Shown: positions 297 to 64,000 of the stretch, in pieces
Position numbering within the stretch: the stretch's first letter is position 1
Layout of the letters: every line of letters starts with the position of its first letter
Virus record (IMG/VR): IMGVR_UViG_3300031555_003397
Length of the DNA stretch: 64,000 bases
Strand: one strand, 5' to 3'
Source of the DNA: a virus
Taxonomy: Duplodnaviria; Heunggongvirae; Uroviricota; Caudoviricetes
Translations under genes and position numbers: made by a program
Notes under the pieces: model-generated
Database searches by the model: none
What the model saw: the letters and a program-made list of their open reading frames with translations, nothing else
What the model was told of the DNA's origin: nothing

Positions 297-1247
297 ATGT
301 AGATTTTATTAGCAATTATTCTTTTAATTTATGTACTTACTATATTATATTATTGGAAACATAGTAAAAAGATATGGGAATAGTATTTAGAAAAGAAGAA
401 AGATGAAGTTGAAAAAGAAATTTCCGAGCGTATCGCTTATCGAGATGGTCTTGAATATGTAATTGAATCTCAAGAAAAAAATGTTAAAATATTGGAAGAC
501 TGCCTAAGACAAGGTGAGCATCAAAAAGAACTACTCTTTAAACAGCTAGAAGATTATGAAAAACAACAAATGGAATATATAAACCATCATGTTGAAGTCA
601 TAAAAGAAATCAAAACCAATGAGGCTCTAAATCAATTGGAAGAAGAGCGTGAACAAGCTGAAGCAGAATTTGAATGTATAAGAAAAGCTAAATAGAATGA
701 GATTGATGCACTCTCTGCTCAGATTGAATCTTTCCGATTAAAACAGGATGCTATAAGTCAAGAAATACTTAGACGGCGCGAATTAGAAGAAAAAGCAGAC
801 TTCTATCGAGTTTGTTTATCTGATGAAGCCATCACTGATATAACTGAATTACAGATAGTAAGACAAAAGTTGAAAAAACCAGAAATTCTTGATAAAATAA
901 TTTATGATACTTATGTAGCTAAACCAGTTCTTGAGATGATAAAAAGAGTTTTATAGAACTCCACTTGTTCAGGTATCTATAAAATTACTTGTCAAGAAAC
1001 AAAAGAGATTTATATTGGTAAATCAACTGATATAAAAAATAGATGGCAACAGCACTGCAAAACCGCATTTAATTGCGGTACTATTGCTTCTTCTTTACTA
1101 CATAGAAAAATGCAACAATATGGTATCGAAAATTTTACTTTTGAATTATTAGAAGTTGTTCCAAAAGACAAATTAAGTGAACGAGAAAAATTTTATATAG
1201 ACTTTTATAAAACTAAGGAGACTGGATTAAATGAACGAAATGGTTGA
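297..1247 (+). CDS. N-terminal TM helix + coiled coil + C-terminal GIY-YIG nuclease (4 in-frame TAG=Gln)
   Basis: Frame open from ATG 297 to TGA 1245-1247 when TAG at 300, 381, 693 and 954 is read through; hydrophobic N-terminus ILLAIILLIYVLTILYYW; GIYKITCQETKEIYIGKS...RW..H motif. Confidence 0.8.
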
Positions 1248-2310
1248 ATTAACTGAACAGCAACGCGCAATCGTTGAAGCAACCGAACCTAGAATTGTTG
1301 TTGTTGCTACGGCTGCTGCAGGTAAAACAAGATGTATTACAGAACGAGTAAGATGGCTTCTGAAACAGGGCATCCCTGGAGAAGAGATTGCTACTATCAC
1401 TTTTACAAATGCAGCGGCTGAAGAGATTTCTGAAAGATTAGGTAATCCCAAGGGCGTGTTTATTGGTACTATTCATTCTCTTGCAAACACTTATCTGAGA
1501 ATTGGAGGCGTTGATACCTCTAAGGTCTTGAATGACGAAAAATTTGATGACTTATTTAAGCTCATCAAAAAGAATCCTGAATGTGTTCAGCATGTAACTC
1601 ATTTGATTGTGGATGAGGCACAAGATTCTAATCCTCGTCAGTTTGAGTTTCTATTAGACATGATTGCTCCTGATAATTATATGCTGATGGGTGATCATCG
1701 TCAGTCTATTTATAGATTTAATGGCGCGACCCCAGAATATATTCTAAATCTAATGGAAAGCCCTGAAGTTACTACTTATGAACTAACCGAGAATTATCGT
1801 AATGCTCCAGAAATTTTGCAGTATGCTAAAAATGGTATTCGCACGCTAGGTAAGGATTATGAAGATTATTCCACTCCCATGAGCAAATTCCATGGTAGAG
1901 TTGTTGATGTTCCTTATTCTGGTGAAGGTATTGTAACTACAATTGAACGCTATGTTAATCGTGGTGATTGTGATTACAAGGATTGGTTTATTTTAACTCG
2001 AACTAATGCTGAGTTAGATGCAATCATGCAAGTATTAAATCGTCATAAAATTCCTGCCGATACCTTCAAGCGTGCACAGCTTGATAATAAGGGATTAAAA
2101 GAAAAAATGCGTGAAAATACTGTTAAAGTTTTAACTATTCACACAGCAAAAGGACTTGAAGCAGATAATGTTGTTGTTATTGGCGCCCGCTACAGAGACA
2201 TTGAAGAAAAATGTGTTAATTACGTTGCGGCAACCCGTGCAAGAAAACTATTGGTTTGGGCGTATAAAACCAATAGCCGTAAACCTAAGACTGAATATTG
2301 GGGTGGTTAA
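1231..2310 (+). CDS. Compact UvrD/Rep-type SF1A helicase
   Basis: Motifs AAAGKT, TFTNAAA, TIHS, VDEAQD, GDHRQSIY, ENYR, TIHTAKGLE, YVAATRA. Confidence 0.9.
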   Translation: MNEMVELTEQQRAIVEATEPRIVVVATAAAGKTRCITERVRWLLKQGIPGEEIATITFTNAAAEEISERLGNPKGVFIGTIHSLANTYLRIGGVDTSKVLNDEKFDDLFKLIKKNPECVQHVTHLIVDEAQDSNPRQFEFLLDMIAPDNYMLMGDHRQSIYRFNGATPEYILNLMESPEVTTYELTENYRNAPEILQYAKNGIRTLGKDYEDYSTPMSKFHGRVVDVPYSGEGIVTTIERYVNRGDCDYKDWFILTRTNAELDAIMQVLNRHKIPADTFKRAQLDNKGLKEKMRENTVKVLTIHTAKGLEADNVVVIGARYRDIEEKCVNYVAATRARKLLVWAYKTNSRKPKTEYWGG

Positions 2311-2550
2311 ATGACTGCTAATTTTCGCAAGCGCTACGACCAGATGATGAATGGTGGAGTAGCAGATTTTACCGAACATGAAGTTTTTGACTTCTTAATG
2401 CACATGGATTATTTTCATATTAATACTTTAAAGGTTCAATCCTGCAATGAAAAGTCAGATGAAGTAACAAAATGGTTTACTTGTAAAGTTGACCTTGAGA
2501 CTGTTAGATTATATAGAAAAGAAAAAAGAAGCGAAATGAGGATTGTCTAA
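2311..2550 (+). CDS. Hypothetical protein
   Basis: 79-aa ORF abutting the helicase stop. Confidence 0.6.
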   Translation: MTANFRKRYDQMMNGGVADFTEHEVFDFLMHMDYFHINTLKVQSCNEKSDEVTKWFTCKVDLETVRLYRKEKRSEMRIV

Positions 2551-2551
2551 T

Positions 2552-61215: not shown

Positions 61216-61218
61216 ATC

Positions 61219-63021
61219 TTAGACTCCTCCAGTACAGAAAACTAGCTAACGTTTGTCGAACATACCACGACGGCGCCGTCTCTTGTTTTGTTCTTCTTCG
61301 AGTTCCTTAATACGCCATAATCCATAAGCAAATGCTGAATATTTATCTTTTGGATAACGTGGATTAATTTGTTCGAGGACAATATCAAGAGAAACACCGG
61401 TGCGGCGTAGTCTTAGGTTAGCCATTTCTTCAAAAAGTTTTGTGGTCATTTCATGCGGCATTAGACGCTGTACGCGTTGCTTGACCGTCATTTTCTGACC
61501 GACCTTGGTAGATAATAGAGCATTCTTTGCTTCTTGTTCTTTTATGAGGAAGCGAACAAGGCCGCCATTTATGCGGGTGTAAGCATTACCGTGGATTTTG
61601 GAGTTAAGAGGTCCATTGGCTTTGATACCATACAGGATGCACATTGCATCTTTTGGTTGAACTTTTAGGAATTCGTCATCATTTTTGAAACCTAGAGGCT
61701 CGTAAATGTTTCCGAATTCATCGACTTGTTCACGAATCATTTCATCAGCAAAACCAATACCTAGACCGTTGGTATCGATAACAACTTCTAGAGGATTGAA
61801 TTTTTTGATGATGCGTTTGAGTTCGATTGCTTGTCGATTAAAAGTTTTTGTCTCAGCCTGACGGCCTAGGACGTATAGGTTTACAAGAGTAGCAAAATAT
61901 TTGCCCTCGCCAGATACGTTAACTCTAAAAACACAACAGACAGTTTGGTCATTCAATCTACCAACGTCTACTGATAATAAGTAGAACTGGTTAGAGTTAG
62001 CTCTAAATTTTGCGGACGTTTCTGGGTTTTTTATCTTTCTATATTTGGTTAATTTATCAAAATTAAACCATGCTTCTTCTGAAGAACCTGACCAAAGTGA
62101 TGCATACTCTCGGGCAAAAGATTCTTCTTTAAAGGAAGAAGATGTTTTAAGTTTGTTGATATAGGTTTTGTCAAGTAGGCCATGAATAACTGGAACACGA
62201 TAATCACAACCAAAAACAAAAGTTGATTTTGGGTGAATGATTGAGTCAATAAAGTCGTCAATTAAAAGGTCATATGCGAACGATGTTTTTACGCCCGCAG
62301 ATGTCATGAATATTCGCTGCTGATTTGGCTCTTTTTCATTTACTGTGTTATCGGGCAGTCGGCGCGAAACGTTCATTAGAGGAAGAACAACTTCATTGAT
62401 AGGAGTTTCATCATGGTCACGCACCTCATCAATTAGGCCGCCATGTCGACGACCACCACGCTGAGAGTCCAGGGCGCCAACAACGTCAAATTGTGAGCCA
62501 TTGCGGAATTTGAGGGTAACATAGTCTTTACCAAAGTTGCCGGGTGTATCACTGATTTCCCCTCCCAAAACTTCTTTGCGAAGTAGGGGCCATCGGTCAT
62601 AAATTTCGACGATTTTTTCTTTTGCAATCTGCGCGGCCTGAGTTTTATTAGGAGCGCAAATAAATCGCTTTGTACCAGGAATGAAGATGCATTGAAGCAT
62701 CATTGCTAAAATAGTAATAAAAGATTTAGAGAACGCACGAGGCGCCGTGCCGAAAACATCTTTAAAACGCATCAGTGCGCGCAATGTAATTCTCTGGTAA
62801 AAGAATAGAGTAAATGATGATTCCTATGGTTTTATAACATCAAGATAAATATCTGGATAAGCGGAAAAGATTGACATAACATTGCCAATCTTTTCCAAAT
62901 TTGCTTCCAAATAATTCTCGTTTAGAATAACACCTTTCTCAATAATAGTACCATCGCGCTAACCAATTTTGATGTTTGAGTCAATCAATCTTTCTGCAGG
63001 TAATAAAATCTTTTTAGCCAT
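61219..63021 (-). CDS. terL: Terminase large subunit (600 aa, TAG=Gln)
   Basis: APRAFSKS Walker A, LIDEVR Walker B, FMTSAG coupling motif, nuclease LSVDVGR, VIDTNGLG, KDKYSA. Confidence 0.92.
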
Positions 63022-64000
63022 TAATCTTCCTCCGGAACACCAGGGTCAAATTCTTCTTCAAGAACCAACTGACTATAACCTTCATTTTCATAGGCGTCTA
63101 AATCATATTCTGCATTAGTACCATAGTAAGATTCTTGTTCAATCAGCGCAACGTTCTTCAAGTTGTTTAGACGTTCTGTGATTTGTTCACCAATACCAGA
63201 CTCATTAGTATAAAGACGCTGGTTAAAAGCTTGGAAGTTTTGCATTGTTTCGTCAACAATGTCCCGAGGAACATCATCATAGAAAGTGTTCTTCCAACCT
63301 CTCTTTTCTAGCCATTTGATTAATTCACCCACAGAGTCAAAGTCATTGATGTTTTTAACATTTTTAGGAGTGAATTCCGCAGTCTTAACCAGCTTGTCAT
63401 AAGAAGCCAAGATTTTATCAAAATCTACACCTTCACGAATACGACAGTCAATCTCATAAGACATTTTACAAATCTTCAAAGCTTGGTCGACCTACAGGGC
63501 GCCATTGACATTCTGAGTAGTCATCAAACCATTGTAAAGATTTTCAAGATAGCGAAGGGCTTCATCATCATAATTGGCGCCCCAGCGCTCCTAAAGTTTA
63601 CGACGCTTTTGGTCTGCAATACCAGGTAATTCATCATCTAGTTCACCTGAAGCTTTTAACTTCTAATAAGCCTCAAAGTAGTCATGCCAACCCAAGTCTT
63701 CATATTCAGATTGAGCGAAAACTTCAGCGTATTTGGGAAAAGCTTTGTCACCATTCATTTCGCGCATTCTCTCCCATTCCTTAGGAACAAAAGGAATGTC
63801 GGCATATTGGCATAATTTATTCACTTCGCGCCAATCGAAATCAACATCAATCAAATATAATTCAACACAATCATTACACATAGGAAGAGAGCCATCTGGA
63901 TAAAAAATTGATTTGGTCATCGCAAAATTAGAAGGCGCGAAAGAATTACCACATCGATTGCACTACTTTATAGCAAAATTACGGCGTCGCGCAATGTTCG
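63021..64000 (-). CDS. Zn-finger (CxxC...CxxC) protein upstream of terL, possible small terminase; partial, TAG=Gln
   Basis: Track ORFs 63663-63920 and 63021-63479 share a frame; K*CNRC...MCNDC. Confidence 0.6.

Follow-up and report, generated by a model that had tools for sequence, protein, structure and literature searches.

A probable reassignment of TAG to glutamine, concentrated in virion genes, in an SPbeta-like siphovirus from animal gut samples

Reading of the stop codon TAG as glutamine, with a bias toward late genes, is established for crAss-like phages, Lak phages and several other clades of gut phages (bioRxiv 10.1101/2021.08.26.457843; PMC10607447). Here, we consider 64,000 nucleotides of a virus of the class Caudoviricetes (IMG/VR record IMGVR_UViG_3300031555_003397), a stretch referred to as the window throughout, for which a genome-wide reassignment of this kind had been predicted from the letters alone. 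The phenomenon as such has already been published for other gut phages, and the phage described here adds another member. It is an SPbeta-like siphovirus from ruminant or animal gut samples, in which, with high probability, TAG has been reassigned to glutamine, TAA and TGA serve as the sole stop codons and decoding is most likely accomplished by a phage-borne transfer RNA (tRNA) with the anticodon CUA.

The closest described recoded phages are those of the Agate clade and phAss-1. Judged by description, the phage is consistent with Agate in size, source and the coexistence of different codes. Agate genomes measure 154 +/- 27 kb (Borges et al., bioRxiv 10.1101/2021.08.26.457843; later Nat Microbiol 2022) as compared to 149.7 kb for the phage studied here, both stem from the guts of cattle and other animals, and both have close relatives that use differing codes. 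In either case structural genes and homing endonucleases are recoded while replication genes largely adhere to the standard code, and in either case the recoded stop is depleted in standard-code relatives. On the other hand, the Agate lineage that has been studied in depth reassigns TGA and not TAG, and two Agate phages with a recoded TAG encode release factor 2 (RF2), whereas none was found in the window or in the related sequences G001 to G007 that are described below.

Phage phAss-1, assigned to the proposed genus Phassvirus (Babkin et al. 2023, PMC10607447; GenBank OQ749652), is a gut phage of the siphovirus type with a genome of about 136 kb, in which TAG stands for glutamine in virion genes and in some genes for DNA enzymes. 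Its group is characterized by large sets of tRNAs including tRNA-Sup(CTA), by the lack of a dedicated synthetase and by standard-code relatives, e.g., Enterococcus phage EF1. In the phage collection, phAss-1 was the only named relative of our phage, where it carries the NCBI label "Caudoviricetes code 15 clade." The portal proteins are 26% identical (tblastn), and a blastn search with 7.9 kb of head genes did not match phAss-1 but yielded an unannotated 4-kb fragment as its sole match. Membership in Phassvirus was rejected on these grounds; the phage belongs at least to a different genus.

The crAss-like and Lak phages that use code 15 resemble the present case in the TAG-to-glutamine reassignment, in the suppressor tRNA that we predict below and in the late-gene bias; their virion and replication modules are unrelated, and some of them encode RF2. 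Their hosts are Bacteroidota. With SPbeta-like siphoviruses the phage shares the Yon/Yom virion families, a very long tape measure protein, a polymerase of the DnaE type and a genome size of roughly 130–150 kb, although isolates of this group use the standard code and their portal proteins are only about 20–26% identical to that encoded in the window. The Pfam families in question take their names from SPbeta, a prophage of Bacillus; precomputed matches to YonB, YonD, YonG, YomU, YomV and YomW were read on the contig of the large terminase (TerL) itself and on contigs of relatives whose capsid proteins are fully or 92% identical. Two ENA assemblies contain the exact TerL protein of the window on contigs of 149,676 bp, from which we take a genome size of about 149.7 kb.

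The window has a G+C content of 37% and comprises two divergent gene blocks (Table 1), with the siphovirus virion module occupying the minus strand from 27675 to 63920. According to the original prediction, dozens of genes in the window are interrupted by in-frame TAG only, the pieces rejoin in one frame and every gene end checked is TAA or TGA. Gene calling with TAG read through bore this out: the proportion of the window covered by stop-to-stop open reading frames (ORFs) of at least 200 amino acids rose from 51% under table 11 to 87% (0.507 and 0.870), while reading through TGA or TAA gave 0.523 and 0.599, respectively. With TAG taken as glutamine, the fragments merge into 45 genes, including genes for proteins of 1042, 930, 1475, and 2840 amino acids with 16, 17, 20, and 58 TAG codons, respectively. 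Across all 45 genes, 26 of which have at least one TAG, there are 159 in-frame TAG codons and not a single in-frame TAA or TGA; 32 genes end in TAA, 13 in TGA and none in TAG. Homology to an orthologue from one of three standard-code relatives (G004, G005, and G006) flanks 140 of the 159 TAGs on either side, and translation must therefore continue past these codons. Four TAGs possibly lie upstream of the true start, namely residues 2 and 29 of the gene at 297–1247, residue 15 of that at 21017–23353 and residue 8 of that at 25638–26612. In independent assemblies from other samples the same genes are likewise laden with TAG. Genuine stop codons, be it in pseudogenes of a decaying element or through assembly errors, would account for the fragmentation of the virion genes under table 11, but this explanation has next to no probability because frames are broken by TAG alone and never by TAA or TGA, the homology extends across the 140 TAGs, the pattern recurs in numerous assemblies of independent origin, some of them complete genomes bounded by terminal repeats, and TAG positions are often common to relatives. 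As a practical consequence, gene callers that apply table 11 shatter the virion genes of this phage, and its correct annotation needs code 15.

To which residue TAG corresponds was derived from IMG/VR relatives retrieved with an alignment of the capsid protein. Three of these, G004, G005, and G006, with complete genomes of 125–132 kb, use the standard code, share the gene order of the window and carry orthologues essentially devoid of in-frame TAG; TAG is recoded in G003 as well as in G007, the latter a complete genome with terminal repeats. At the columns occupied by TAG in the window, the standard-code genomes have Q 81 times, K 46 times, D 34 times, and E 29 times among 341 aligned residues. 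A likelihood calculation, for which the substitution patterns of each residue were learned from these alignments, placed Q first, with a margin of 93 log-likelihood units in total and of 26–33 units for each of the three genomes. Recoded relatives either keep TAG or exchange it chiefly with CAA and CAG; relative L018 retains 84 of the window TAGs, replaces 22 by CAA or CAG and replaces at most three by any other single codon. Among tightly conserved contexts in which the orthologues have Q are the GyrA site and the motifs FDFQNL, ENLQKI, and FLGLQ.

Three individual sites had been put forward in the original prediction as positions at which homologs carry glutamine, and all three assignments hold, albeit on different grounds. 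The TAG at residue 85 of GyrA aligns with Q in the motif RMAQDFS of the four top-ranking solved chains of gyrase A, which all represent one protein, and the same column is occupied by Q in G003 to G007. For the RuvC-like protein, residue 85 is Q in all three standard-code genomes, while TAG is retained in the recoded G003 and G007. The column of RecJ residue 103 contains Q in phage orthologues only, i.e., in the standard-code genomes G004 and G006 and in G003; in its vicinity, E or N is found in cellular RecJ proteins of solved structure.

The latter finding, the ranking of K, D, and E directly behind Q at TAG columns and the label "Pyl" that ARAGORN assigns by default to the tRNA with the anticodon CUA could be taken to indicate that TAG is a sense codon for glutamate, lysine or pyrrolysine. 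We regard this as extremely improbable. Q is favored over E and K by 26–40 likelihood units in each of the three genomes, codon exchanges lead to CAA and CAG and not to GAA or AAA, and orthologues have Q in precisely those contexts that are tightly conserved. Pyrrolysine is further disfavored by a poor fit of the TAG columns to lysine and by the structure of the suppressor tRNA of a relative (see below), which has an ordinary G18G19 and T-loop. tRNA-Pyl is built differently, without G18G19 and without a T-psi-C sequence. Comparison of the sequences thus supports glutamine as the residue specified by TAG.

The recoding shows a strong preference for genes of the virion, the tail and selfish endonucleases. 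In the replication block, TAG provides 12 of the 277 glutamine-type codons (4%), as compared to 147 of the 499 (29%) of the virion block (Fisher's exact test, p = 2e-19). Thus, while recoding itself stands, the uniform spread implied by the term genome-wide does not. TAG is absent from the genes for DnaE (1329 amino acids), GyrB, DnaB and the UvrD-like helicase, it reaches 32–62% of the glutamine-type codons in the fiber and other distal tail genes (31061–42356), and it is also present in homing endonucleases. The capsid protein, the scaffold-like protein and the tail tube, presumably the three most abundant virion proteins, use CAG only (23 of 23 codons), with neither TAG nor CAA. A late-rich and early-lean pattern has already been published for recoded gut phages (bioRxiv 10.1101/2021.08.26.457843; PMC10607447). 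G007, a distant recoded relative, likewise has no TAG in its genes for the capsid and scaffold-like proteins.

The lack of TAG in those virion proteins that are most abundant and its highest density in tail proteins of low copy number are what would be expected if TAG were a leaky stop that, short of full reassignment, limits the amount of tail proteins through inefficient read-through. This appears very improbable in view of the 58 TAGs in a single essential protein, the tape measure. Read-through of about 98.8% per TAG is computed to be necessary for half of the chains to reach full length, and with less than about 96% per codon fewer than 10% of the chains would do so. Moreover, not one gene is terminated by TAG. 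The 58 TAGs of the tape measure would also require release factor 1 (RF1) to be effectively out-competed.

The original prediction had further postulated that the phage supplies or exploits an amber suppressor tRNA, none being visible in the window, and tRNAs with the anticodon CUA indeed occur in two recoded relatives, G007 and the ENA contig scaffold_257 (141,983 bp). The link to the phage studied here is provided by contig G001, which is 91–93% identical to positions 61121–64000 of the window and extends it by 41.6 kb to the right. A tRNA array begins next to the ClpP gene of G001, and the contig stops 3.5 kb into this array. The TAG-recoded scaffold_257 encodes a ClpP protein 87% identical to that of G001, and its array starts at the same position beside ClpP, has the same gene order near this end, spans about 16 kb and comprises 32 tRNAs called by ARAGORN. 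Near the far end of the array lies a CUA tRNA of 74 nt (Infernal, 52 bits) with normal D and T loops, an unpaired U1 opposite C72 and the discriminator G73, preceded upstream by an endolysin gene and two near-consensus matches to sigma-70-like promoters. The CUA tRNA of G007 (Infernal, 36 bits) has U1.U72, G73, and an odd T-loop and was missed by ARAGORN. In bacterial tRNA-Gln, identity is marked by an unpaired or weak 1–72 pair in combination with G73. No CUA tRNA was found in the standard-code relatives G004 to G006.

Several results weigh against decoding of TAG as glutamine by means of a phage-encoded tRNA. The proportion of Q is 24% at TAG columns as opposed to 38% at CAA/CAG columns, a difference that fits the location of TAG in less conserved proteins and would accommodate a minority of TAGs with another reading. 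Neither ARAGORN nor Infernal (E up to 1) detected any tRNA in the window, and none was present in the 14.8 kb by which contig G002, identical to window positions 1–4457, extends the sequence to the left. Ten tRNA-like matches were obtained for G001, a contig that ends within the array, and none of them has the anticodon CUA. The suppressor of scaffold_257 is 68% identical to the tRNA-Gln(UUG) of the same contig and at most 65% identical to its other tRNAs, a marginal edge. Pfam and PHROG scans of the window genes gave no match to a release factor, the release-factor domain PF00472 had no match in G001 to G007, and the catalytic core of glutaminyl- and glutamyl-tRNA synthetases (PF00749) was not found in G001 or G002.

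Additional searches for the suppressor gave a similar outcome. Scanning of metagenomes with a word from tRNA-Leu(CAA) yielded four short array fragments devoid of CUA tRNAs, two scans of IMG/VR with words from the scaffold_257 suppressor produced no match, and BLAST of this tRNA against the phage collection was equally negative. A scan of IMG/VR with the endolysin adjacent to the suppressor returned 26 loci, none with tRNAs nearby; the five records that were checked encode no capsid protein more than 43% identical to that of the window. Two further long contigs of relatives end short of the array. Since ARAGORN overlooked the CUA tRNA of one relative, however, we attach little weight to such absences.

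These findings bear on the possibility that recoding is real but depends on the host, i.e., on a host suppressor tRNA or on a host in whose own code TAG is a sense codon. In favor of this proposal, no CUA tRNA was detected across about 120 kb, made up of this genome and of contigs standing in for it, and recoded phages without a detectable suppressor have been published (PMC10607447; bioRxiv 10.1101/2021.08.26.457843). On the other hand, two recoded relatives do carry such a tRNA, in scaffold_257 it sits exactly in that part of the array that lies beyond the end of G001, and hosts of recoded phages use the standard code according to surveys (PMC10607447; bioRxiv 10.1101/2021.08.26.457843). Dependence on the host is therefore considered unlikely. 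A search for related prophages by capsid alignment, which might have revealed the host, retrieved no relative among 185,579 reference genomes.

Our preferred explanation remains a decoder supplied by the phage, most likely a CUA tRNA with the glutamine-like acceptor features seen in the relatives (U1 unpaired with position 72, and G73). Extrapolating from scaffold_257, its gene would occupy the distal end of a tRNA array of 16 kb in this genome, about 50 kb past the right end of the window. The tRNA would probably be charged with glutamine by the host's own glutamine pathway, and host RF1 would be out-competed or neutralized. TAG acts as a minor glutamine codon in early and replication genes and as a major one in tail, fiber and homing endonuclease genes. 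With neither a release factor nor a synthetase found in the relatives, restraint of RF1 is a step that we infer. The amidotransferase-related domain GatB_Yqey (PF02637) had no match in the relatives either, and YqeY (PF09424) gave a match of 12 bits only. Near-complete reassignment with no RF2, synthetase or amidotransferase helper found in the relatives opens up the possibility of an unrecognized phage factor that neutralizes RF1, and TAG density may in addition serve as a graded dial for the amounts of virion proteins; we offer this as a speculative and rather doubtful suggestion. If true, a dial ranging from no TAG in capsid, scaffold-like and tail tube genes to as much as 62% in fibers would go beyond a simple early/late switch.

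The relatives also throw light on how TAG may have become available for reassignment. Crude gene calls ending in TAG amount to 5 of 131 in G004, 8 of 136 in G005, and 5 of 142 in G006 (4–6%), and none of the 36–37 orthologues of window genes in these standard-code genomes ends in TAG. Depletion of TAG as a stop thus precedes recoding, which fits the published idea of stop loss followed by recapture. Together with the recoded window phage, G003 and G007, all of the same gene order, the standard-code genomes form a natural series for the study of stop loss and recapture.

Table 1. Genes, gene groups and individual TAG codons in the 64,000-nucleotide window.
Feature	Position	Strand	TAG codons and remarks
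Replication and nucleotide-metabolism block, 20 genes	297..27662	+	12 in-frame TAG vs. 265 CAA + CAG; products: GIY-YIG endonuclease, UvrD-like helicase, GyrB, GyrA, AAA_24 ATPase, DnaB, RecJ, DnaE-type polymerase, NrdD, NrdG, dUTPase, RuvC-like protein
TAG at GyrA residue 85	5695..5697	+	Aligns with Q of gyrase motif RMAQ(D/P)FS
TAG at RecJ residue 103	13862..13864	+	Q in phage orthologues
TAG at residue 85 of RuvC-like protein	27186..27188	+	ILAID-TAG-ATH
Six small genes without assigned function	27675..31000	-	3 TAG altogether
Distal tail genes	31061..42356	-	1042-aa (amino acid) protein, 16 TAG; tail fiber, 17; minor tail protein, 20; Dit, 4
Tape measure protein, 2840 aa	42370..50892	-	58 in-frame TAG; many fragments under table 11
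Tail tube paralogue, homing endonuclease, tail tube, head-tail connector genes	50954..56528	-	Homing endonuclease, 3 TAG; connector genes, 1–5 each
Tail tube	52548..53408	-	0 TAG
YonB-type major capsid protein (350 aa; 56595–57647) and scaffold-like protein (192 aa; 57666–58244)	56595..58244	-	0 TAG and 0 CAA each
YonD-like protein, portal, large terminase, YonG-like protein (start past window end)	58259..63920	-	1, 3, 3, and 3 TAG, respectively

The relatives contain further unusual tRNA genes. Directly 3' of the CUA suppressor of G007 (L070, 7172–7248) lies a tRNA with a short variable arm (class I) and the leucine anticodon UAG, the body of which is unusual for tRNA-Leu. A TAG-recoded close relative (L074, 107–179) encodes a tRNA with the anticodon UCA (opal-suppressor type, 62 bits), and its genes still end in TGA. 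Two tRNA-like genes in G005 (104401–104860) and G006 (86771–87246) have anticodon loops of eight and six nucleotides according to ARAGORN ("gtta" and "tc"). Structured RNAs were also detected within tRNA arrays of relatives (L016 of G001, 4780–5516; L075, 4943–5072 and 8934–9052), with matches to the 5' end of GOLLD (33 bits, E = 2e-6), to drum RNA (53 bits, above the cut-off), to RAGATH-33 (117 bits, just below the cut-off) and several YrlA-like matches.

Other observations concern gene mobility and exchange among the relatives. The large-terminase gene of G001 carries an insertion of 1020 bp (L014, 1259–2277) relative to window position 62379/62380, where the window copy is uninterrupted; the insertion encodes a homing endonuclease of the HNH/NUMOD type with six in-frame TAGs. 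The capsid protein of the window is 100% identical to that of L018 and 92% identical to that of L019, while the respective values for the tape measure protein are only 82 and 40%, and it follows that evolution or exchange is much more rapid in the tail module than in the head. In G007 (59679–64802), the DnaE orthologue is represented by two ORFs about 1.1 kb apart, an arrangement that suggests an intervening element.

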